From the IMG/VR virus record IMGVR_UViG_3300029258_005404: DNA of 64,000 nucleotides. One strand, written 5' to 3'. Shown one piece after another: positions 8,532 to 25,329 of the stretch; the first letter of the stretch is position 1; each line of letters begins with the position of its first letter. This DNA is from a virus. The translations under genes and the position numbers were made by a program. The notes under the pieces were generated by a model. That model saw only the letters and a program-made list of their open reading frames with translations, was not told where the DNA came from and ran no database searches.

Positions 8532-9602
8532 ATGTTGATTAAAGGTTTGACCCACGATGATAGTGGGGCGCTCAACATGATTGAAAAATATAGGGGTAAG
8601 ATTTCTACTGGTTATGCTCCTGGAGAGGGTCCTAACAAAAAAAATCACCCTGTTGCTGCAGGTTTCTTTCGAATATTAAAAGAAATCACAGAAACAAAAA
8701 GAGTTGGGAATTCCGATGCTCAAGTTGTAATTAAAAGCTGGAAATTAAATGATTCAATACAGAAAAAGCTTGAAACAACTCTTAAAAGTAAAATGCCACG
8801 AAGAATTGAGCTGGTAAGTTTTTATCAAACAATTGATGAAATGTGGGAAAGCTGTCTTGCAATGTTTTCATCATCTGAAGGTTTAATGTGTAAAAGCCAT
8901 GGAGAAGGAACGAACGCAAGACAATTAACATTCACACCTGATGGTGATCGTGAATGGGTTGATAGAATATTTAATGGAAAAAAGGGATGCCCATACAAAC
9001 AGTGTCCTGATTATATTTCTAAAAAATGCAAACCCCTTGGAATGCTAAAATGTTTTCCAATTATTGATTTGACACCAAATCCATATAGATTCGAAACAAG
9101 ATCGTTGAATACTATAATGGGTATTGAATCATCTCTTACTAAATTATGGAATTTATTGAATGTAGCACATGCTATTAAACAAAAAGAAGCCAATAGCCTA
9201 TTAAAATTTGATGGGTTTTTTGGAGCAAAAATGTATTTAATTCATAAAAAAATAAAGTCTGGCGGTAGGGATGTTTTCATATCCGAATTATTGCCAACAC
9301 AATCTTTTATTGATGAGGTTATGGAGCCAATCAAAAGAGGGTTGGACATGAAATCAAAACAGGCAAAAATTGCAGCATCAAATGAAAGTATGTCATTACT
9401 TGAAATGGCAGAAACAGCATTACTTGAATCTGGAATCAATGATGGTACAGATGAAGAGTCTGTTCCATTAAGCATTGAAGACCAGCAACATATAGCTAAA
9501 GAATTTGGTGCTGATGCAGATATACATGGGCCTCAAGAAGAGGCTTCTCTTGATGATGTTAAGAAGGAAGTTGCTGAAACGCTACTTAATGAAGAGGAAT
9601 AG
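8532..9602 (+). CDS. Recombination directionality factor-like (Gp3-like) protein
   Basis: GKISTG...HPVAAGFFRI, GLMCKSHGEG, CPYKQCP...CKPLGML, YRFETRSLNT pattern typical of the phage Gp3-like family; acidic tail; AAGGAGG SD. Confidence 0.65.
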   Translation: MLIKGLTHDDSGALNMIEKYRGKISTGYAPGEGPNKKNHPVAAGFFRILKEITETKRVGNSDAQVVIKSWKLNDSIQKKLETTLKSKMPRRIELVSFYQTIDEMWESCLAMFSSSEGLMCKSHGEGTNARQLTFTPDGDREWVDRIFNGKKGCPYKQCPDYISKKCKPLGMLKCFPIIDLTPNPYRFETRSLNTIMGIESSLTKLWNLLNVAHAIKQKEANSLLKFDGFFGAKMYLIHKKIKSGGRDVFISELLPTQSFIDEVMEPIKRGLDMKSKQAKIAASNESMSLLEMAETALLESGINDGTDEESVPLSIEDQQHIAKEFGADADIHGPQEEASLDDVKKEVAETLLNEEE

Positions 9603-9612
9603 AAAAAAATTA

Positions 9613-10757
9613 AAGTACAAGAGTGATACTGGTGATTCGCCAGTGCGAAAATATTTATGTGGACGCGATGTTACATAGCGCAGGGACCTGCAGCGGGAGT
9701 CATTAACACTCCCGATTCCAGGTTCGGGCCTGAGTCCTACACCTGGAATCGGGTAGCATAATGACTCCCGCTGCAGGTGGTCGGCGCTAGTAACATCTGC
9801 TAAACCTGAATACACGATTTTAATCGGCTGAAATCCCGGAAAATGCGGTAGCTTTTCCGGGATAGCAGCACGATCTAAAATCGCTCATTAAGGTCTATCT
9901 TAGTTGTACTTCAAAAAGAATATTAAGCATGAGAGCTTTACACCTGATGTTTCGTCAGGGTAGCTTACCGCTAAAGCTGACATCCCTCACGAGTTGGTCG
10001 GAAAATAAATTCCTGTACCAATATCCGTCGGGATGACCGTCAGCTTTCGCTACTTTTCATCCCGACGAATGTTGGACCAGGAATTAATTTTCCTCTTGCC
10101 AACTCGCAGTGATGATCTATATTAGTCATGCTTTTGAGCGGGAAAGGTGATGAGTATCACCTTCCCGCCATTATTGTAAGGGCGAATCTGATGGTTCATC
10201 AGAAATGAAGTTAAATAAGTACACAGTATTGTGTTACCTGGAGGAACACGGGCCCATCCGCCCTGCCTGTTTCAGTCTTCTTACAGAAGACTTACACGGC
10301 GTGCGGTAGGGCCCGCCGTTCCCCAGCAAACCCAATCTGTATCAAAATTATAGTTACAATTTAATAACGCAAGTTGCTCAATCGAGACGTTTCGTCTCGG
10401 CCCGATTTTGGGTGCGCAGGCACCATCTGAAAAATTATTCCAGGTCCGTTCCCGGATACTCGGGTTCGCTGGAATAAGCGATACCCGGGTATCCGTTCAG
10501 GACCGTTTCACAATTTTTCAATAGGTGCTCTGCTTTCTTGACCAGCAAAATATTCTATATAGTTGCGTCAATGGCGTGAAAGGCGCTAATTTTTTTTAAA
10601 TAAGATTTGATATATAAGAATTAAAAAAAAAGGATGGTGTTTCGCCATCATGTTAATTAATTAAGACCTCAAAAATTGATGGTGCAGCTCGGCAACAGTC
10701 CTCAGTTTTAATCCTTGATAAGAATTAAAACTCACGGACTTTTTGCCCGGCTGCTCC
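9613..10757 (+). ncRNA. Large structured non-coding element (putative ~1.1 kb ncRNA or ncRNA cluster)
   Basis: No credible ORF over ~1.2 kb; the paired segments reach about 55% GC. Nested long-range helices (9613-9620/9904-9911; 9925-9932/10126-10133) and rod hairpins at 9667-9797, 9815-9883, 9990-10106, 10138-10168, 10238-10326, 10443-10504 and 10681-10757. Several stem imperfections are G-U wobbles on the + strand. Confidence 0.75.
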
Positions 10758-10826
10758 ACAATTTTTTTCACCTTGTAATATCAATATTAGTTATATATCA
10801 AATTACATTAATATTGGAGGGTTTTA

Positions 10827-11303
10827 TTGGTACTAATTGGAGGAATTATATATACTATAATTTTATTATTATGTATTATGTATTGCATCATACAACATCT
10901 TCAAAATAGAGAAACAAAGAAGCAATACATTCATATAATTAATGAATTAACTGAGTCAAGTGAACAAAAAATAGTTAATATAAACACATTGTATGAAAAG
11001 ATAGAGATGTTGACTGATGAAAAACTCTATTATAAAGATAGAGTTGATGATTTGGAAAAAGCTATAGAAACTGGATTTGGAATATCAGTACGAAAAAATG
11101 TTACAATTGTCAATACAGATTTACTTAAGTTTGACTATGTTATAATGCTTGCTGGTATTAATAAACTTATAAAAGACAATCCAGAAAAAATTGATGATAT
11201 AAAATATTATATTGAATTAATGGAAAAAATACAGGCAATTCTTGATAAAATGCCAGAAATACAAGAAGAAAAAGGAGCTAGTGAGATAATAAATGCAATA
11301 TGA
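10827..11303 (+). CDS. Hypothetical membrane-anchored coiled-coil protein
   Basis: N-terminal hydrophobic helix (VLIGGIIYTIILLLCIMYCII) followed by a helical region; GGAGG SD. Confidence 0.65.
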   Translation: MVLIGGIIYTIILLLCIMYCIIQHLQNRETKKQYIHIINELTESSEQKIVNINTLYEKIEMLTDEKLYYKDRVDDLEKAIETGFGISVRKNVTIVNTDLLKFDYVIMLAGINKLIKDNPEKIDDIKYYIELMEKIQAILDKMPEIQEEKGASEIINAI

Positions 11304-13575: not shown

Positions 13576-14301
13576 ATGGAAAAAGTGGTAATTAAAGCAA
13601 AAAATATTACCATAAGGGATGAAGAAATACTTAACAGATTAAAAAAATTAAAAATAGAATTTATTCATCTCGTAGCCCATAAAGAGGAAAATGGTTCCGT
13701 TTGTATAATTGCAAAACAACCAGAAAACGATGAATTAACTATACCGACATGGTATTATAAAATATCAATTAGTAATAATTCAGCTTCAATAAGAACTCCA
13801 AATTTCTTAAAAAAATATTTGAGAAAAACTGTATATTGTTATATAGAAAGACTATTTAAAGAAAAAAACGAATTATTCAGGATGCAAGCTGTAAATTTTA
13901 TGCTTGATATTAATAGTAAAAAAGATAGAAGAACTGCAATTGATAAATTTCCTTATTTTACAAAAAATGGCGAATTTGTAATTCCTCAATATTATTTAAA
14001 TAAAAATCTTAAGCATCAATTTTGTAAAATGAAGGTATCTATGAGTAGAACAAACAAAAATATATTAAATCAAAATTTTATATTTGTATTTTTAATAAAA
14101 TTAAAAGATTCGCATTTAATCAAAGACAATAATCTTTTTGGTTTTAGAAAATTTTCTAATGGGATAAGAACTAAAAAACTTACTTTTTTTATTGAATATC
14201 TAAAAAAGAATAATAAGACTTTGAACAATTATCGATATATAACAACTGTTCCTTATAATAATTATCCATACGGGTTAATAGTTTTCGAGGAGAAAAGATG
14301 A
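13576..14301 (+). CDS. Basic hypothetical protein
   Basis: 241-aa Lys-rich ORF coupled to the next gene; no confident family. Confidence 0.6.
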   Translation: MEKVVIKAKNITIRDEEILNRLKKLKIEFIHLVAHKEENGSVCIIAKQPENDELTIPTWYYKISISNNSASIRTPNFLKKYLRKTVYCYIERLFKEKNELFRMQAVNFMLDINSKKDRRTAIDKFPYFTKNGEFVIPQYYLNKNLKHQFCKMKVSMSRTNKNILNQNFIFVFLIKLKDSHLIKDNNLFGFRKFSNGIRTKKLTFFIEYLKKNNKTLNNYRYITTVPYNNYPYGLIVFEEKR

Positions 14302-14765
14302 ATGAAGAAAAATACCTTGATTACGCAAAAGCCCTTGATGCATTAAATTCTGCAGAAAGAGAATTATGTAATAGAAAAAGAGCCTTACAAATAATAAAGG
14401 ATGAATTAACATCAGAAGGCAACGACGGAAGTTGTGGTGTAGATATATCAGATCATGCTTTTAAACAAGTGTCTGAAAGGCTTGAGGACTTGGTAATGGA
14501 ATACCCTTTTATTTATAGGGATGTAATAAAAGCTGAAGAGCCAAATGAATCATTACTTCTTGCATCAAATATGAAATCATTTATAATAACAATGCTTGCA
14601 AATGCAAAATTAAAAGGAAAAGAAATTGAGAATGATTCAAAAAGTGGCGGAAAAGAATACAGATTTATTATTGATATAGGAAAATGGAGTAGAGATAAAA
14701 CTCTTCAATTTGTTGCTATTGTAGAAAATAATAATATAAAAACTGCTTTCTTTAATTGGGTGTAA
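14298..14765 (+). CDS. Hypothetical protein (coiled coil + possible DUF4258/RelE-like fold)
   Basis: ISDHAFKQVSERL resembles the HAxxRxxER motif; C-terminal VAIVENNNIKTAFF resembles the last strands of BECR-fold proteins. Confidence 0.5.
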   Translation: MNEEKYLDYAKALDALNSAERELCNRKRALQIIKDELTSEGNDGSCGVDISDHAFKQVSERLEDLVMEYPFIYRDVIKAEEPNESLLLASNMKSFIITMLANAKLKGKEIENDSKSGGKEYRFIIDIGKWSRDKTLQFVAIVENNNIKTAFFNWV

Positions 14766-16549
14766 TTATGAAAATAAGCATTCTCAATAAGTATCAGTTT
14801 CTTATAGGGTGTAATGATAAGCTCCTTCTTGGAAAAATGAAGGAAATGATGAATGGTAAAAAAGTAAGAGGGTATAATAGAATAATTATACCTTTAAAAT
14901 CTGGGCCAAAAATATATCGGTTCAAAAAATATGGAATAGAATGGGGAGACGGAGCGCAGAGGCTTATTAATAATATTTTAGCAAATACAAAGAAGCGTAC
15001 TCAGGTTATTGCTAAAATAAAAAATCAGTATGGCAGTAATATTAAATTCGATTATGATTATCAGGGTTCATATGAACCTATGGAGCATCAAAAAATATTA
15101 TTTAACATGATGGTATATCCTGAAGTGTCATGTATCATAGCAGATACTGGTACATGTAAAACTGGTCCATATTTATGGGCAATTGACAAAAGAATACAAA
15201 GAGGACAAGTTAGAAAAGCGCTTGTTATCACAATGACGGATTTGAAAAAAAATGTTCTGGAAGAAATGAAGGTTCAGGTTCCTCATTTAAGAGGTGTAAT
15301 ATTAAAAAATAAAACTCAATCTAACAATGTAATTAATAAAACTTATAAAATTAAAAAAAAGAATATGGACTACGATATTTATATAGGAAATTACGAATCC
15401 ATGTTCTCAGTGTTAAGTATAACACCAGATGATTATTTTGATATGGTTATTCTTGATGAGGCCCATAGAATTGGCAGCCCACATTCGAGACAAACTAAAA
15501 AAATAGTTAAAAAATTTGAAAACTGTAAATTTAAATATATAGTTACAGCCACATTGATATCAAACAATCTTATGTCATTTTTTATGCCTTTTAGATTTCT
15601 TGGTACAGACACAATACCTTATGCAAAACATGACGAATTCAGAGGGCAATTTATGCATCCTGTTGATCAGGATAGGCATGTGTGGATTCCTAATGATGGC
15701 TCAGAAGAAAAGGTTTCTGTAATAATAGGAAAAATATCAGCATCATTTAAAAAAGAAGATTGTCTTAATCTTCCGCCATTAATACGGGAAAAAGTAACAT
15801 GTGACATGGGATCAGAGCAATTAAGATTATATAATTCAATGAAAAAAGATTGTATAGCAATTATTGAAGATATGTGCAAACTGTGTAGCAGTAAAGGAAA
15901 ATGTGACATGTCTTGTGAGCAAACACTTATTGCCCAAAATGCGTTGACACTTACAACAAAACTTCAACAAATAGCATCTGGATTTTATATTAATTCAAGA
16001 ACAAAAATATCACCAGATGGAAAAGAAATCAAAGAAAAAAGTATTATCACTCTTGAAGAAAATCCGAAATTAAGATTACTTATTCAAGTTTTAAATAATA
16101 TTCCTTCAAATAAAAAAGTAATTATATGGGCGCATTATGTTCCAGCAATAGAACTTATCAAGAAGGCTATTGGTAATGCTTTTGGTGAAAATAGATATCT
16201 TACCTGTTATTTAAAACAGGATGCTTTTGAACAAGTACAGAAATTTAGAGACCCACAATATCGATTTTTAATTGGAAATCAAAAAAAAATGGGTCACGGG
16301 CATAATATACAATTTTCTAATTATCAGGTATTTTTTTGTAATCCATATTCATATATTCAGCGCGACCAGGCGGAAGGGAGGCAATACAGAAAAGGTCAAG
16401 AGCTATCAGTGACAGTTATAGATTTAGTAACAAAGCTTACTATTGACGAGGTAGTATTAAAGGCTTTGGGTGCCAAAGTTGATTTATCCATGAGTCTCGA
16501 ACAATGGGCAAGAGTCCTAAAAAAAGGACCTGATGCATTAGAGCTATAA
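14756..16549 (+). CDS. SNF2-family (SF2) helicase/ATPase
   Basis: EHQK (Q motif), ADTGTCKT (Walker A), ILDEAH, TATLISN, GHGHNIQ, QAEGRQYRKGQ. Confidence 0.9.
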   Translation: MGVIMKISILNKYQFLIGCNDKLLLGKMKEMMNGKKVRGYNRIIIPLKSGPKIYRFKKYGIEWGDGAQRLINNILANTKKRTQVIAKIKNQYGSNIKFDYDYQGSYEPMEHQKILFNMMVYPEVSCIIADTGTCKTGPYLWAIDKRIQRGQVRKALVITMTDLKKNVLEEMKVQVPHLRGVILKNKTQSNNVINKTYKIKKKNMDYDIYIGNYESMFSVLSITPDDYFDMVILDEAHRIGSPHSRQTKKIVKKFENCKFKYIVTATLISNNLMSFFMPFRFLGTDTIPYAKHDEFRGQFMHPVDQDRHVWIPNDGSEEKVSVIIGKISASFKKEDCLNLPPLIREKVTCDMGSEQLRLYNSMKKDCIAIIEDMCKLCSSKGKCDMSCEQTLIAQNALTLTTKLQQIASGFYINSRTKISPDGKEIKEKSIITLEENPKLRLLIQVLNNIPSNKKVIIWAHYVPAIELIKKAIGNAFGENRYLTCYLKQDAFEQVQKFRDPQYRFLIGNQKKMGHGHNIQFSNYQVFFCNPYSYIQRDQAEGRQYRKGQELSVTVIDLVTKLTIDEVVLKALGAKVDLSMSLEQWARVLKKGPDALEL

Positions 16550-16572
16550 TTGTTAAAAATAAAATAAATTGT

Positions 16573-16605
16573 AAAGGGGCTGCTATTTCTTTTAGCGGCC
16601 CTTTT
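16573..16605 (+). terminator. Rho-independent terminator
   Basis: AAAGGGGCTGCTA / TAGCGGCCCTTTT stem. Confidence 0.75.
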
Positions 16606-16625
16606 CATTTAACAAAGGAGCCCTT

Positions 16626-19576: not shown

Positions 19577-21508
19577 ATGGACCAAACATTTGGTTTTATA
19601 GAAGTATGGCTCGCTGATATTTTACATATTGAATATCTTGAGTATGCGCTTGAAAATGGTTCAATTGCTGCTGCTGTCGGGCAAGATGGTTTTAATGAAT
19701 CATTTACTGCTATATCATATTTATGGGAAAAATTTGACCAAGATGATGCATTTAGACCAAGAGTGGTTGATTCAATAATTTCTGGTATGAAAATTGCAAT
19801 CCATAAATATTGGGCTAATGATGACTTGTTAAATGATTTAACAGGTGAGCGTGCAAAATTATCAGAAGTTTATCTTAACGTTATCGGAATTGGTCCTGGT
19901 AGATTTTCGCTTGATGCAATTAAGGATGAAATAAATAATAGAAATATAAATATACATCAGGATAATAATGCTGATATAAACAACAATGAGGCCATTCCTG
20001 AAGAACAAAATGTTGATATTAAACAGAATAAGGAATTGCAGTTTGATACTATTCCAATATGGAAAACGCGAATTGAAGAAATTGTTCATATTATAAAATC
20101 GATTACATACCTTGATCCAACTCGTGATGAAATATTTGGTGAAGATAAAGTGAGAGTTGTGTCATTTAAGGGTGAAGAAGTTAGTGATGATCAATTTGAT
20201 AGAATTATTAAAACAGCAAAAGGAATTAAAAAAAGTGTCATATGCATTTATAGCGCATCTGATGCAAATTTGATAATCGATGCGTTAAAACGTAATTATA
20301 ATATGGATGATATATCAAAATATGTATTATTTTTTATTCATTCATTACCAACAAGTAAATTTACATTAACTGAAAATGCAAAATCTCTTTGTTTTGGATA
20401 TGAAATAGATGAGATATATAAAATACCAGGCACATCAAATGAAAATGACGAGATAAATAAAATAAGAAACGACAATTCGTTAAATGATGCTGAAAAGCAA
20501 GATTCTATCAATTTAATTCTTGCAGAAAGAAAAAATTCTCCTATATATAAATTCGATGGAATATACAAAGATACTGTTACTAATGTAATATGGGCTGTTA
20601 AAGACAGATGTATTATATACTTTTTGATTCCATATTCTACTGGAAAAAATACGGCAGTATATAAATGTATATATAACGAATTAATAAGAAGGTATTTAAA
20701 ATCTTTACCATATAGAGAACTTGTCAAAATAGATCTTGAATATATGGAAAAGATGCATAGCAATAATAAAGAAGATTATATTAACTTTGCTGTAGAAAGT
20801 TCAAAAGTTATTACTGAGCAAATTAAAAAAAAAATGGAACAGCATCGCAGCCAATATAAAGAACATCTTGATCAAGCTATGGAGCATGCAAAACTATTTC
20901 AAAAATATTTTGATCAGATTTCATATTTCGATGAAAAAAAATTTATAAAAGATCAACGTAATAAAGCAAATGAAAATTATGAACAAACTATGGCAATTGA
21001 TAAAATAAGTGCTATTACGGTAAAAGATAATACTGTACATGTGTATACACATAATTTATATGCGCAGGATGAAAGGACTAAACGTTGGCATGACATAGGA
21101 ACTTTTCATATTGCAATAGGGATGCATAGTAATGCATATGATGCAAATAGAACAGTAATAATTAAAAATACTAAACATATGATACAAGTTGGAGCTTCAA
21201 AAATGAATGCCCCGCATGTGTGGGAAAATGGAACCTTTTGTCATGGAAATCTTGCTTCAGGAATGATTGATGCATATAAAAGGAAAAATTTATTTGAATT
21301 AGTTTACCAATTAATATTATTTCTTGAATCAGCGAATACATCGGATTCTGCTGGTGAAAAGGTAAATAGATGGCCAGAAGTTTCAGAAGAAGTTGCATTG
21401 AATACAGATTATAATCAAAACTCTGTTTATGAAATAATGGAACAAATGGCACAAGCTGAAAAGAAATTTGATGATGCATTAGCAGATGCAATACCTATTC
21501 ATATTTAA
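19577..21508 (+). CDS. Large protein with coiled coil and C-terminal prokaryotic E2 (UBC-like) domain
   Basis: C-terminal APHVWENGTFCHGN (cf. E2 HPNxxxxGxIC), candidate catalytic Cys555; homologous to the C-terminus of the next ORF; first gene of the E2-E2-JAB-E1-Ubl operon. Confidence 0.7.
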   Translation: MDQTFGFIEVWLADILHIEYLEYALENGSIAAAVGQDGFNESFTAISYLWEKFDQDDAFRPRVVDSIISGMKIAIHKYWANDDLLNDLTGERAKLSEVYLNVIGIGPGRFSLDAIKDEINNRNINIHQDNNADINNNEAIPEEQNVDIKQNKELQFDTIPIWKTRIEEIVHIIKSITYLDPTRDEIFGEDKVRVVSFKGEEVSDDQFDRIIKTAKGIKKSVICIYSASDANLIIDALKRNYNMDDISKYVLFFIHSLPTSKFTLTENAKSLCFGYEIDEIYKIPGTSNENDEINKIRNDNSLNDAEKQDSINLILAERKNSPIYKFDGIYKDTVTNVIWAVKDRCIIYFLIPYSTGKNTAVYKCIYNELIRRYLKSLPYRELVKIDLEYMEKMHSNNKEDYINFAVESSKVITEQIKKKMEQHRSQYKEHLDQAMEHAKLFQKYFDQISYFDEKKFIKDQRNKANENYEQTMAIDKISAITVKDNTVHVYTHNLYAQDERTKRWHDIGTFHIAIGMHSNAYDANRTVIIKNTKHMIQVGASKMNAPHVWENGTFCHGNLASGMIDAYKRKNLFELVYQLILFLESANTSDSAGEKVNRWPEVSEEVALNTDYNQNSVYEIMEQMAQAEKKFDDALADAIPIHI

Positions 21509-21524
21509 TTAAGAGGAGGACTTA

Positions 21525-22607
21525 TTGTTAACGTTGTTTATTAATCCGAATCTAGGCTTTACTATGAACACGCTTCCAGAAGGCATGTTCAATATTATGC
21601 AAAGTATAGATGTAGGTTCAGACAACACAATACAAGTCGTTATCGAAGATAATAGACTTGAAGAAGCTCGTGAAATACTGTCCGATGCTTATACTGGTTT
21701 TGTTAATTTCAACCAAACTGGAAGTATTGTTAAAGTTGATATTGGTGCAGAACCGGCAGAGCCTGAAGATCATGGTATTGAAATCGAAGAAGAGGGTAAT
21801 GAAGAAGAGGAATTGGACGAAAGAGACGATGCTCCTGAAATTGAAATTCCACCTGCTGGACAGGCAGTACCACGAGAAAATGAACCTGGCCAAGACGCGC
21901 CGATTCAACGTAATACAATGATCGAACCTTCTGTGGTACGAGAAAATATCATAGAAGATAACAATCAGCCATATACTGTACAGGTATATGCTTTAATTGC
22001 ACAAGCAGTTGGCGGTGAGAGTGTAAATCTTGCCAAACAACTTGATGAAGCAATACGTCAATTTAATATTCATTTCAATAAAGCACTTGCTTTAAAGCGT
22101 CAAGTTGACTCTGCAACTCAAAGATTTACAGAATCAAGCCCTGAAATAATTAACCTTGTTGAACAGGCAAACACTCTTGCCGAGCAGTATGAGCTTGTTG
22201 AAAGGGTGTATTTTACAAATGAAGAGCTTGTATTTATTACAATACCACTCATCACTGATGACAGGTGGGATGGTCACAGGCGACTTATCGGGTCTATGAG
22301 AATAGGAATAGCACTTGAGGCTTTATTCTCACCAAATCCAACAAGTGATAATAATGCGATATCAATCAAAAACCTTACTCACAGATATGTAAGCGGTTCA
22401 GGTCGCATATGGGAGTGTGGTCATTTTGATTCTCAAGGGCGTTCTTGTTTTGGAACTGCTTTTAATGCAATATTTGATGCTATTGTATCAAGAGATTTAA
22501 CTTATATTATTGAATCTTTGATTCGATTTATTAAATCTCCTAATCCGAATGATTCATGGGGTAGTCATATGAAATATTGGCCAATAGCACCAATAGAAGA
22601 GGAATAG
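21525..22607 (+). CDS. Second E2 (UBC-like) domain protein with acidic N-terminus and coiled coil
   Basis: CGHFDSQGRSCFGT, candidate Cys308; shares IGxxxIxI, IKNxxH and NxxDSxG-x5-WP with the upstream paralog; TTG start with AGGAGG SD. Confidence 0.7.
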   Translation: MLTLFINPNLGFTMNTLPEGMFNIMQSIDVGSDNTIQVVIEDNRLEEAREILSDAYTGFVNFNQTGSIVKVDIGAEPAEPEDHGIEIEEEGNEEEELDERDDAPEIEIPPAGQAVPRENEPGQDAPIQRNTMIEPSVVRENIIEDNNQPYTVQVYALIAQAVGGESVNLAKQLDEAIRQFNIHFNKALALKRQVDSATQRFTESSPEIINLVEQANTLAEQYELVERVYFTNEELVFITIPLITDDRWDGHRRLIGSMRIGIALEALFSPNPTSDNNAISIKNLTHRYVSGSGRIWECGHFDSQGRSCFGTAFNAIFDAIVSRDLTYIIESLIRFIKSPNPNDSWGSHMKYWPIAPIEEE

Positions 22608-22617
22608 CAACAATAAT

Positions 22618-23538
22618 ATGGATTATTTCAAACCTGATAATCGTAAAACAACGTATAGAATCCTAGCAGATGATAAAAAAAAAGCGCCGCGTATAATATT
22701 TAGTATCACGGCGCTTAAATGGATTAAGGTTCTTATGGATGAACATGACACTGAAATTGGATTTTATGCGATTGTGGATGAAAGAGAAGCTGGTGAATAC
22801 TATGTTCATAATGTATTCTACCCGAAACATGAACTTGTTACAGGAGGAACGTGTGAAATATCCCCGGAGGGTGAGACTGAGATCATGCAATACCTTATTG
22901 ATAAAGGCAGAGAAGATGATATTGCCAAAATAAGGTTCTGGGGACATAAACATCCTGGGCATTGTGCAACAGGCCCATCAGGGCAAGATGAAAAACAGGC
23001 TATAGATAGAATGAATTCTACTGGAGCCTATTTAGTAAGAGCCATATGTAGTGGCACTGAAATAAGTGTATCATTCTTCGATTATGATAATAAAATAAGG
23101 TTCGATAATATCAAATGGGAAGTTGAAGAAGATAATAGAACCGCTATTATGATTGACAGATTGAACAAGCTTCAAGGTGTGTTTGATGGTGAAACCACCG
23201 AAGAAAATGTAGATGCTCGCTATACTGAAATAGCAAAAATATTTTCAGTAGATAGTGAGATAGAGGCTATAAAGGCCAAAGTAAAAGAATTGAAAAAAGT
23301 CAATATTCCAAATGAAAATGAATCAAAATATTATGGAAATAGACGAAATTATTCAATTAAAGATATTAGGAGTCAGCCGTGGAAAAATGGTGATAATGTT
23401 CAACAAACAACATTATTACCAAACAGACCAACGTCTCAAAGTAATATTGGTCTCGATGAAAATGAAACTGTTTTATTGCTTGATGAAATCGATCAGGAAA
23501 TCGATGATTTCTATGGGGCGTATAGAGGGGGCTACTAA
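22618..23538 (+). CDS. JAB/MPN metallopeptidase (deubiquitinase-like)
   Basis: N-terminal TEIG Glu and GHKHPGHCATGPSGQD (HxH...SxxD JAMM motif). Confidence 0.85.
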   Translation: MDYFKPDNRKTTYRILADDKKKAPRIIFSITALKWIKVLMDEHDTEIGFYAIVDEREAGEYYVHNVFYPKHELVTGGTCEISPEGETEIMQYLIDKGREDDIAKIRFWGHKHPGHCATGPSGQDEKQAIDRMNSTGAYLVRAICSGTEISVSFFDYDNKIRFDNIKWEVEEDNRTAIMIDRLNKLQGVFDGETTEENVDARYTEIAKIFSVDSEIEAIKAKVKELKKVNIPNENESKYYGNRRNYSIKDIRSQPWKNGDNVQQTTLLPNRPTSQSNIGLDENETVLLLDEIDQEIDDFYGAYRGGY

Positions 23539-24308
23539 TGGATTATATACGGCAATTAGGGTTACTTGACCCAAAAGATATAAAGAAAAAAAGTGTTTCG
23601 ATAATTGGGGTCGGAGCTACTGGAAGTCATGTCGCACTGTACCTCGCCCAACTTGGGTGGGGAAATTTAGCGCATGAACAGGGAATAATAAGAGTTTTTG
23701 ATGACGATATTATTGAAGAGCACAATATTTGTAATCAAATTTATGAACCATCCCAGGTTGGTAAATCAAAAGTAGAAGCTCTTAATGAAATTATAAAACG
23801 TAAATGTAATTTTGAGATTGAAACACATAAAGAGATGGTAACAAATCAAAAAAGTGTTCAATCTACTTATGTTTTTATTCTCACAGATACAATGGCATCA
23901 AGAAAAGAAATATTCGAAAATTGTTTAAGATTTAGTTTCAATACAGACTTGGTAATCGAAACACGGATGGGTTTGCGTGAAGGTCGGGTTTATGCATTCA
24001 ATCCACACGATGGAGATCAAGTTTTGGCATGGAAAGATACGCTGTATAGCGATGAAGAGGCAAACGTATCTGCATGCGGAGCAAGCGCATCAATAATTAC
24101 AACCACTACATTTCTTGCGAGCCTCGCATGTGGAAGGGTCGTGCAGCATTTCAATGGAAAGTATGGGACTGATGATAAAATATCAAAACCAGATCGGTCT
24201 CAGAAATTATGGAATGAGGTTCACTTTTCCCTTTACCCTGAATCATTTTATTATAGAATGTTCAATGGAGGGGAGCCTCAGTTCATTCAGCAGAACTTAA
24301 ATCAATAA
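23538..24308 (+). CDS. ThiF/E1-like ubiquitin-activating enzyme
   Basis: IIGVGATGS (GxGxxG), DDDIIEEHNICNQ, GKSKVEA, TDTMASR, candidate catalytic Cys in SACG; lacks the MoeB/ThiF CxxC zinc pairs. Confidence 0.9.
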   Translation: MDYIRQLGLLDPKDIKKKSVSIIGVGATGSHVALYLAQLGWGNLAHEQGIIRVFDDDIIEEHNICNQIYEPSQVGKSKVEALNEIIKRKCNFEIETHKEMVTNQKSVQSTYVFILTDTMASRKEIFENCLRFSFNTDLVIETRMGLREGRVYAFNPHDGDQVLAWKDTLYSDEEANVSACGASASIITTTTFLASLACGRVVQHFNGKYGTDDKISKPDRSQKLWNEVHFSLYPESFYYRMFNGGEPQFIQQNLNQ

Positions 24309-24341
24309 CTATTTTCCAACGAAAGGGTTTTTGCTAATATA

Positions 24342-24821
24342 ATGATTTGTGCAAAACTCATCCAGATGGGTAAACCAATTCAGGATGCTGAAATTTCTGG
24401 TAACCCAACTGTGCAGGGACTGTTAAACGCTCTTAGCGTTACGGTTCCGGCAAATAGCACCATTACTCGAAATGGTGTAGAGGTAAATTTATACACCCAA
24501 CTGTACAACGGAGACAAAGTCTTCATCGGAACAAAAACAAAAGGAAATGTTGATGAACCATTCGAAGTTCAGTTAATTCGTATGGGGGCTGGCGGCGGAA
24601 TTGAAAAACTTCCCGCCACGGACGGGATGACTATTCAGGAAGTTATCGATCAGCTCAGTGAAGAAAAGAAAGCATCTTTTAAACACGCTGATGGTAGCCC
24701 TGCTTACGAATACCGTATCGGCACACGGAAGGTTGAGTTAACTGAAAAACTTTATAGCCCAACCGGAAGTGATATATTAAGAATTATATTATCTCAAAAG
24801 GTAAAAGGCAATAAGTCTTAA
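24342..24821 (+). CDS. Ubiquitin-like protein with two tandem beta-grasp units
   Basis: Two related units beginning xLIxMG, each ending in KGN (aa 67-69 and 155-157); follows E1 and JAB genes. Confidence 0.75.
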   Translation: MICAKLIQMGKPIQDAEISGNPTVQGLLNALSVTVPANSTITRNGVEVNLYTQLYNGDKVFIGTKTKGNVDEPFEVQLIRMGAGGGIEKLPATDGMTIQEVIDQLSEEKKASFKHADGSPAYEYRIGTRKVELTEKLYSPTGSDILRIILSQKVKGNKS

Positions 24822-24853
24822 AGCCGCGTATTAACCTCTTAATAACGACAATT

Positions 24854-24885
24854 ACGGGGAATAATTTAATTCCCCGTTTTTGTTT
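24854..24885 (+). terminator. Terminator closing the ubiquitin-like operon
   Basis: ACGGGGAAT / ATTCCCCGT stem followed by TTTTGTTT. Confidence 0.8.
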
Positions 24886-24905: not shown

Positions 24906-25304
24906 ATGGGAGCAATGTTAAAAATAGTAGCATTGATTAATGGTAAGACAAGCGAATGCAGTGTTGAATTAGATTGTGTTGACATTGTTCAGTGTAATTA
25001 TCACAAAGATTCAGATGATATTATTGAAGTCGGCCGAAGAGGTAAATTAATTATCGATACCACTTCATCAAATAGGATATCGATTGACACAGGAGTTCAG
25101 GGAAAAATTCTGTGTATACTGGCTGATACAAAACTCGAGGCACCAATATATTATAAAGGTATTGATGGTGTTCTCAAAATGTATACTGGCTGGAAGCTAT
25201 ATTCCAGAAGCAAAGAAAATTTCCTGCAGTATATACTTGGAAAAGGGGGATTTGTGCCATCAAAACAAAATGATGACACTGATAATAAATCGGAAAAATC
25301 ATAA
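24906..25304 (+). CDS. Hypothetical protein
   Basis: 132 aa with AAGGA SD; last + strand gene before the convergence point. Confidence 0.6.
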   Translation: MGAMLKIVALINGKTSECSVELDCVDIVQCNYHKDSDDIIEVGRRGKLIIDTTSSNRISIDTGVQGKILCILADTKLEAPIYYKGIDGVLKMYTGWKLYSRSKENFLQYILGKGGFVPSKQNDDTDNKSEKS

Positions 25305-25329
25305 TGGGGCCGATTGGCCCCATTGTTTT
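25303..25329 (+). terminator. Terminator at the convergent junction
   Basis: AATGGGGCC-gatt-GGCCCCATT followed by GTTTT. Confidence 0.65.

Follow-up and report, generated by a model that had tools for sequence, protein, structure and literature searches.

Judged from their sequences and predicted structures, the five genes p1–p5 described here quite probably make up a self-contained cascade for conjugation of a ubiquitin-like (Ubl) modifier to proteins, owned by a large and probably virulent phage. The genes are contained in a stretch of 64,000 nucleotides (the window), which corresponds to bases 104298–168297 of the 186,450-bp IMG/VR virus record IMGVR_UViG_3300029258_005404; the record, from an uncultured phage of 186 kb, has direct terminal repeats and a CheckV completeness of 100%. 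All five assignments, that is, two E2-like proteins (p1 and p2), a JAB/JAMM metallopeptidase (p3), an E1 (p4), and a Ubl precursor (p5), survive testing.

Related loci on viral and metagenome contigs (L002–L042; 35 from a JAB-profile scan of IMG/VR and six, L002–L007, fetched earlier) were analyzed by searching their open reading frames (ORFs) with jackhmmer, and an E2-like protein, a JAB peptidase, an E1, and a Ubl protein were found together in 39 of the 40 related loci, with the gene order changing; the sole exception (L005) is a 3.8-kb contig fragment that ends just past the JAB gene. Because the four component types co-occur to this extent, they are regarded as one functional module. The module is encountered in a five-gene form, consisting of a long E2-like protein, a short E2-like protein, JAB, E1, and a tandem Ubl, with p1 kept in all of the five-gene loci, and in a four-gene form of variable gene order, consisting of JAB, E1, one E2-like protein (340–570 amino acids), and a single Ubl; the cassette is kept across a broad set of uncultured phages of 60–210 kb. 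An earlier reading of the same DNA from its letters alone (hereafter the sequence-only reading) had interpreted the operon as serving protein conjugation rather than cofactor synthesis, and this interpretation is supported by the co-occurrence and by a search of the whole genome in which sulfur-transfer partners were not found (see below).

The operon is composed of five co-directional, tightly packed genes on the + strand between positions 19577 and 24821, separated, from p1 to p5, by 16, 10, −1, and 33 nt; the start codon of p2 is TTG, with an AGGAGG site ahead of it, and p3 and p4 overlap at the sequence TAATG (−1 nt). The tight coupling of the five genes and the terminator at 24854 described in the sequence-only reading are borne out by the ORF layout and by a 9-bp hairpin with a T-run at 24854–24877, and the residues singled out there are all in their places (C555 aligned with C308, the SACG cysteine at C180, and the JAB histidines at H110 and H112). 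A sigma-70 promoter scan performed no better than on shuffles. The features are the following, with positions counted from the first letter of the window.

19577–21508, + strand: p1, long E2-like protein of 643 amino acids
20942–21382, + strand: UBC/RWD-like E2 domain of p1 (amino acids 456–602), with H547 at 21215–21217 and C555 at 21239–21241
21525–22607, + strand: p2, short E2-like protein of 360 amino acids
22125–22595, + strand: UBC/RWD-like E2 domain of p2 (amino acids 201–357), with H300 at 22422–22424 and C308 at 22446–22448
22618–23538, + strand: p3, JAB/JAMM metallopeptidase of 306 amino acids, with H110-x-H112...S121-x-x-D124 at 22945–22989
23538–24308, + strand: p4, minimal ThiF-type E1 of 256 amino acids, with C180 (SACG) at 24075–24077
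24342–24821, + strand: p5, tandem beta-grasp Ubl precursor of 159 amino acids, with K67-G68-N69 at 24540–24548 and K155-G156-N-K-S at 24804–24818
24854–24877, + strand: intrinsic-terminator-like hairpin of 9 bp, then a T-run (TTTTGTTT)

The p4 protein matches the Pfam family ThiF (PF00899) with 75 bits against a cut-off of 28.1 bits (E = 6.6e-21), its closest solved sequences in a phmmer search are E. coli ThiF, PaaA, MccB, UBA5, and MoeB, and the PADLOC 'E1-E2' (Cap2) models match its adenylation domain only (2.6e-14). In the nucleotide loop G24xGAxGS30, G24 and G26 are invariant and A27, G29, and S30 are at least 90% conserved among 27 sequences, and D117, the Mg-binding Asp, lines up with the TD motif in E. 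coli ThiF. The residues invariant in the 27 family members are R5, G24, G26, D55, D57, H62, N63, N66, Q67, K78, D117, R122, R143, D172, and C180, the last of which (in S-A-C-G) is located in the crossover-loop segment, three residues from the Cys of the NCRTAG segment of ThiF in the phmmer alignment. There are five cysteines and zero CxxC motifs in p4, the zinc-binding CxxC pairs of ThiF and MoeB being absent. A ThiF-type E1 with an SACG cysteine and no zinc pairs, as had been called from the letters, is thus confirmed by the Pfam match, the invariance of C180, and the lack of CxxC.

The presence of ThiF and MoeB among the closest solved E1 relatives by sequence, the ThiS matches within the Ubl family, and the GenBank label 'thiamine biosynthesis protein' on homologous phage E1s would all suit a sulfur-carrier system, in which p4 thiocarboxylates p5, like ThiS, MoaD, or TtuB, for cofactor synthesis or for tRNA/DNA thiolation during infection. 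We consider such a system very unlikely. Models of rhodanese, ThiG, MoaE, PP-loop ATP_bind_3, and class-V aminotransferase (cysteine desulfurase) have 0 matches in the complete 186-kb phage genome and match 11–14 control genomes, so that the absence of sulfur-transfer partners, claimed in the sequence-only reading, holds for the whole genome with positive controls. This result makes the sulfur-carrier reading less probable, although host enzymes could still supply sulfur; the missing CxxC pairs of p4 speak in the same direction, and an obligatory JAB, E2-like partners with an invariant Cys, and poly-Ubl precursors would have no role in sulfur transfer.

The p5 protein consists of two beta-grasp-sized halves, ending in K67-G68-N69 and K155-G156-N-K-S, respectively, and is predicted to be a tandem ThiS-like protein. 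The ThiS model gives p5 itself a sub-threshold score of 21 bits (cut-off 22.5); within the family, 10 of 25 members match ThiS (best 3.4e-6) and 2 of 25 match SAMP2 (2.5e-9), and K67 and G68 are invariant across 25 aligned homologues. The call of a beta-grasp Ubl is sustained by these matches within the family and by the invariant K-G. Most of the homologues terminate directly after KGN, others ending in KGA or KGG or carrying 1–24 extra residues, and the second domain in all tandem Ubl forms also ends in KGN; the single-domain homologues (67–83 amino acids) align with domain 1 of p5. In one related locus (L033), the Ubl protein contains three head-to-tail units, each ending in IKGN with an Asn cap, and in another (L059), a Ubl protein of 149 amino acids contains two identical units ending in LRGN, the final one capped by a single Cys. 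Since the Gly of p5 is capped, processing is required, and since identical head-to-tail units placed one residue apart are sensible only if they are cut apart, these sequences argue strongly that poly-Ubl units are set free by proteolysis. The obvious candidate for the cutting enzyme is the JAB peptidase, whose action would make the invariant Gly the new C-terminus.

The capped ends bear also on a chemistry like that of MccB or PaaA, in which the E1 would adenylate the terminal Asn of KGN to yield a succinimide or peptidyl-nucleotide end and no protein conjugate. A C-terminal Asn is what MccB acts on, the closest solved sequences to p4 include both MccB and PaaA (7e-5 to 1.5e-4), and Asn is the final residue in most members of the Ubl family. 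However, several members have Ala or Gly in place of the Asn and others continue for 1–24 residues beyond it, K/R-G being the constant part; moreover, the substrate is a folded beta-grasp protein, and the E2-like and JAB partners would be left unexplained, making this chemistry extremely improbable.

The JAMM motif of p3 reads E46 ... H110-x-H112 ... S121-x-x-D124 and is followed by a variable C-terminal tail. In an alignment of 41 homologues, W108, H110, H112, Q123, and D124 are invariant and E46 and S121 are at least 90% conserved, and the earlier assignment as a JAMM peptidase stands, with the full motif kept in the 41 homologues. A Pfam match was not obtained for p3 itself; Prok-JAB (PF14464) is weakly matched by 19 of the 41 homologues (best 2e-4), and none of the 98 homologues collected through a word-index search, many of which lie on 50–200-kb contigs, has a Pfam domain. 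Against PDB sequences, the p3 profile gave coiled-coil or chance matches only, as did the p2 profile and p5.

AlphaFold2 models of p1 and p2 were built from family alignments. In the p1 model (predicted local distance difference test, pLDDT, 86.6), N-terminal alpha/beta domains (1–129 and 161–375) are followed by a long helix (379–450) and a C-terminal UBC-like domain; in the p2 model (pLDDT 76.3), an N-terminal alpha/beta domain (1–75) is followed by an acidic disordered linker (78–150), a coiled coil, and a C-terminal UBC-like domain. The C-termini of the two proteins are paralogous (29% identity over 112 residues, BLASTP E = 1e-10), with C555 opposite C308. Residues 456–602 of the p1 model align with UbcH10, UBE2S, Ubc13, UbcH5, and UbcH7 at Z-scores of 7.0–7.6 and root-mean-square deviations of 3.5–4.0 over 118–124 residues, the outcome being the same when Foldseek's list was re-examined and when the model was aligned exhaustively to 48,161 representative chains. 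For residues 201–357 of the p2 model, the top Foldseek rows are nearly all E2s (Ubc13, prob 0.99, E = 0.011), and the exhaustive alignment gives UBE2S at Z 7.0 with 130 residues aligned and the RWD domain of Knl1 at Z 7.1. The two E2-fold proteins with candidate catalytic cysteines of the sequence-only reading, which had named the lack of a UBC fold as a finding that would count against it, are therefore retained as predicted UBC/RWD-like folds with middling Z and an invariant Cys, outside any matched sequence family; both models are UBC/RWD-like.

Conservation in these domains is concentrated around the cysteine. H547, C555, G557, and G593 of p1 are invariant in 26 sequences, as are H300 and C308 of p2 in its family, and the 41 E2-like domains compared all share the Cys and the next Gly, with at least 90% conservation for the His ahead of the Cys and for an Asp, another Gly, and a Pro; in the p1 model, C555 is positioned immediately ahead of a helix (557–568). 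The local pattern, PHV-x3-G-x2-C-x-G ... F-L-x-S-x-N-x-x-D-x-x-G-...-W-P, with PHV and not HPN, resembles the canonical E2 pattern HPN-x4-G-x-I-C ... LLxxPNxxDP. With the E2-like domain as query, an exhaustive profile search collected 4,827 clusters (50% identity) at E ≤ 1e-3, of which 2,310 also reach E ≤ 1e-10. Of the best 149 representatives, 12 have a pair of E2-like domains joined in a single chain, each domain with its His and Cys, which suggests that p1 and p2 may act together, and the predicted coiled coils suggest a heterodimer. Fused tandem E2-like proteins are found in L059 (5001–9795; 645 amino acids), beside the two-unit poly-Ubl ending in LRGN, and in L061 (5001–8565; 578 amino acids), beside a single 73-residue Ubl ending in IRGA. 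A pairing of one E2-like protein with each Ubl domain is not settled by these loci, as the units of L059 are identical and the tandem E2-like protein of L061 has a single Ubl. Structural neighbors of the E2-like proteins in BFVD and the ESM Atlas are uncharacterized and mostly viral.

Several observations weigh against the conjugation cascade. Knl1 RWD domains, which are non-catalytic and of the same superfold, score equal to the E2s (Z 7.0–7.3), and the fold matches of p1 and p2 are middling (Z < 8) and can reflect a common arrangement; for both of these reasons the fold call is limited to 'UBC/RWD-like'. Neither p1 nor p2 has a Pfam, PHROG, or PADLOC match, and no Bil or Bub sequence model fits them; the E2 models UQ_con and Prok-E2_A to E gave no match at E ≤ 0.1 for p1 and p2 and none at E ≤ 1 for 26 family members; and when the E2-like profile was compared by hhalign to five E2 regions from Cap2, the result was non-significant (prob 1–7%), the same non-significant alignment pairing PHV..C with PHV..IC of Cap2. 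In addition, p4 is a minimal 256-residue adenylation domain without a recognizable E2-docking (UFD-like) domain, p5 ends in K-G-N, not G-G, and the p3 cut site within p5 is one that we infer. A complex prediction for two copies of E1 with Ubl 70–156 and p1 453–612 scored 0.03, which gives no verdict either way.

Three of these points, namely the Knl1 scores, the lack of a matching E2 sequence family, and the minimal E1, would also favor an E2-independent system, in which activation and transfer of the Ubl both fall to the E1, in the manner of archaeal SAMP/UbaA, and the C-termini of p1 and p2 are non-catalytic scaffolds, adaptors, or substrates. Non-catalytic UEV/RWD domains typically lose the cysteine, whereas in the 41 domains the Cys is invariant and the His at least 90% conserved, a set that covers the two halves of the fused tandem form as well as distant single-E2 forms, and an E2-like gene stands beside E1, JAB, and Ubl in every locus long enough; the E2-independent system is thus unlikely. 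The catalytic role proposed for the C-terminal domains of p1 and p2 rests on this conservation.

The whole-model fold searches barely probe the p1 N-terminal domains (1–375), and no fold claim is made for that region; looking up the N-terminus of p1 in the ESM Atlas yielded no match of use, the Atlas's own model being poor. In p2 (amino acids 1–150, window positions 21525–21974), residues 1–75 form a confidently modeled alpha/beta domain with weak Nmd3-type and ferredoxin-like matches (Z ~7), and a 70-residue acidic segment that is modeled as disordered comes next.

Beyond the observed gene set, invariant residues, co-occurrence, and phage ownership, and the folds as modeled, we infer the chemical steps of the conjugation cascade as follows. 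In the first step, p3 would cut the p5 precursor after the invariant Lys-Gly, removing the Asn or a longer cap, and would probably also separate the two beta-grasp domains of p5, exposing their C-terminal glycines. The C-terminal glycine of p5 would then be adenylated by p4, which probably holds the Ubl as a thioester on Cys180, for transfer to the cysteine in the UBC-like domain of p1 (C555) and/or p2 (C308). Target choice may lie with the N-terminal regions of p1 and p2, which are large and family-specific, so that both proteins would act as E2/E3 hybrids, and the Ubl would become attached to a lysine in a protein of the host or the phage, from which the same JAB peptidase could remove it again. 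Going further, we give an even chance to the proposal that large phages run an active conjugation cascade during infection, supplied with a poly-Ubl-like precursor and a mostly viral, uncatalogued E2 family whose N-terminal domains pick host, rival-phage, or the phage's own virion proteins; the two E2-like and two Ubl domains of the five-gene form may constitute two parallel channels, and the cascade would then be the first case of a complete Ubl system owned by a virus of prokaryotes, a mirror image of the bacterial Bil system.

In a survey of the operon in phage versus host genomes, proposed along with the sequence-only reading, the 40 related loci come from viral and metagenome contigs, and the cellular occurrences amount to one contig of a metagenome-assembled genome (MAG) and one degraded copy. 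The former was the one locus found by a JAB pattern scan of 185,579 species genomes; this contig, 30 kb long and from a Chitinophagales MAG, has all five genes of the cassette, and it either hints at the host phylum or results from a binning error. Among 400 other sampled genomes of the same phylum, the p2 profile gave a single weak chromosomal match. The chromosomal copy (L048; G074:C3:1096000-1115999, ~13600–16620, minus strand) is a decayed four-gene cassette, with a Ubl ending in EGGNN, an E2-like gene split into 265 and 97 amino acids, a JAMM gene, and an E1 split into 109 and 105 amino acids; with RadC, an ATP-dependent DNA ligase, a Mu Gam-like protein, an AAA ATPase, and a dynamin-like GTPase as neighbors, it looks like a mobile-element remnant.

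Against 50,697 GenBank phage records, blastn with the operon and tblastn with the JAB gave 0 matches, and p4 matches 80 GenBank phage records annotated as 'thiamine biosynthesis protein', a label that is probably wrong for the phage E1s. E1s of the same family are present in Flavobacterium phage FpV4 (L050, NC_041872.1 58989–69513; hmmsearch 5e-37) and Xanthomonas phage PhiXhv-15 (L051, PV764602.1 80000–90572; 4e-42). In FpV4, a JAMM protein (gp51) borders the E1 (gp50), and gp53, whose N-terminal Ubl-like region ends in KSGG, is close by; gp52 is a possible E2-like protein from a motif seen by eye, with no profile match. In PhiXhv-15, the neighbor of the E1 is an 892-residue protein with an HPHM...C-L-G E2-like motif.

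In the phage genome, the operon is preceded by a + strand array of genes for primase, polymerase-exonuclease, SNF2-type helicase, RNase H, and VRR-NUC nuclease, which form a replication module, and the very large genes on the opposite strand downstream of the operon have no PHROG match. Integrase/resolvase models gave 0 matches in the whole 186-kb genome and matched 12–14 control genomes, which fits a virulent lifestyle without proving it. Rfam and tRNA scans of the window found nothing. On the 3′ side of the terminator-like hairpin, an ORF of 132 amino acids (24906–25304) has no family match and is kept only in the closest relatives (4 distinct loci), and a second hairpin (25303–25324) ends the convergent junction with a minus-strand gene of 699 amino acids. 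Farther upstream, about 1.2 kb of the window (9603–10826) between a 356-amino-acid gene (8532–9602) and a gene starting at 10827 is devoid of ORFs of at least 70 amino acids. In a related locus (L007, 10789–14429), an IS605-family OrfB/TnpB (Cas12f-like) gene lies directly downstream of the cassette, followed by NUDIX and NAMPT/NAPRTase genes that may be a nicotinamide adenine dinucleotide (NAD) salvage set.

Prokaryotic E1-E2-JAB-Ubl operons have so far been associated with bacterial immunity (Bil and the type II cyclic oligonucleotide-based antiphage signaling system, CBASS) or have a role that is unknown (Bub). What sets the present cassette apart is the ownership of the full set by a virus, together with the uncatalogued E2-like family, the capped KGN ends and poly-Ubl precursors, and the paired E2-like proteins; the E2-like domain family includes thousands of sequence clusters, yet is covered by no curated model. 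If the cascade is active, phages would tag proteins with their own ubiquitin-like modifier, raising the questions of what is tagged, whether host Ubl defenses are countered or mimicked, and how E2 specificity is achieved without an E3. FpV4 and PhiXhv-15 offer a laboratory entry point and show that the present annotation is misleading.

The phage cassette is worth comparing with the known systems. A search within a limited library of papers found no description of a phage-borne E1-E2-JAB-Ubl cassette, two jumbo-phage overviews do not mention one, and the Bil, Bub, and Ubl-diversity papers treat bacterial operons. The closest in composition is Bil (BilABCD, types I and II; 10.1101/2023.09.04.556158; 10.1101/2023.09.26.559546; PMC11601603), a group of ISG15-like ubiquitination operons that defend bacteria against phages; they likewise carry separate Ubl, E2, JAB/JAMM, and E1 genes in one operon and no E3, and BilA of type I is, as p5 is, a fusion of two beta-grasp domains with a conserved Gly as the presumed conjugation site. 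However, the cassette is borne by a phage within a replication-gene array, whereas Bil resides in a bacterial defense island; it has two E2-like proteins (643 and 360 amino acids) with large N-terminal regions and an E2-like domain family without a Pfam or PADLOC model; its Gly nearly always bears a cap (KGN), whereas BilA as a rule stops at Gly; both of its Ubl domains have the KGN end, with true poly-Ubl repeats in relatives; and its E1 is a minimal adenylation domain of 256 amino acids. PADLOC models gave no match to p1, p2, p3, or p5 at E ≤ 0.1, the set of Bil models in PADLOC not having been verified; the cassette would work like Bil, and it is not demonstrable that it belongs by sequence to Bil, Bub, or CBASS. 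Like the cassette, the Bub (6E/DUF6527) operons (PMC11601603, PMC11601596) combine an E1 and an E2 with a Ubl, which in Bub has one to three beta-grasp domains, and type I also has a JAB peptidase; they differ from the cassette in that no DUF6527 serine protease and no Ubl-E2, E2-E1, or JAB-E1 fusion was found in p1–p5 or the flanking ORFs. Type II CBASS resembles the cassette through Cap2/Cap3, the E1 of the cassette being matched by the PADLOC 'E1-E2' models and accompanied by a JAB partner; in contrast, the cassette has no CD-NTase, no nucleotidyltransferase, and no E2-E1 fusion, and its substrate is a dedicated beta-grasp Ubl instead of the cyclase C-terminus. Among phages, the lambda/T1 tail-assembly proteins TAPI (Ubl) and TAPK (JAB with NlpC/P60) are the only Ubl-JAB pair described by Iyer et al. 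2006 (PMC1779556); they share with the cassette a phage-encoded Ubl with a conserved C-terminal Gly and a JAB predicted to release it, whereas the tail pair has no E1 and no E2 and lies among tail genes, and the cassette constitutes a full activation and transfer set with replication genes. Finally, eukaryotic polyubiquitin precursors consist, like the Ubl proteins of L059 and L033, of head-to-tail Ubl units ending in Gly with a short non-ubiquitin cap; the phage units, in contrast, resemble ThiS, have (K/R)-G at their ends in place of G-G, and are set apart by an Asn, and those of p5 have diverged into distinct domains.

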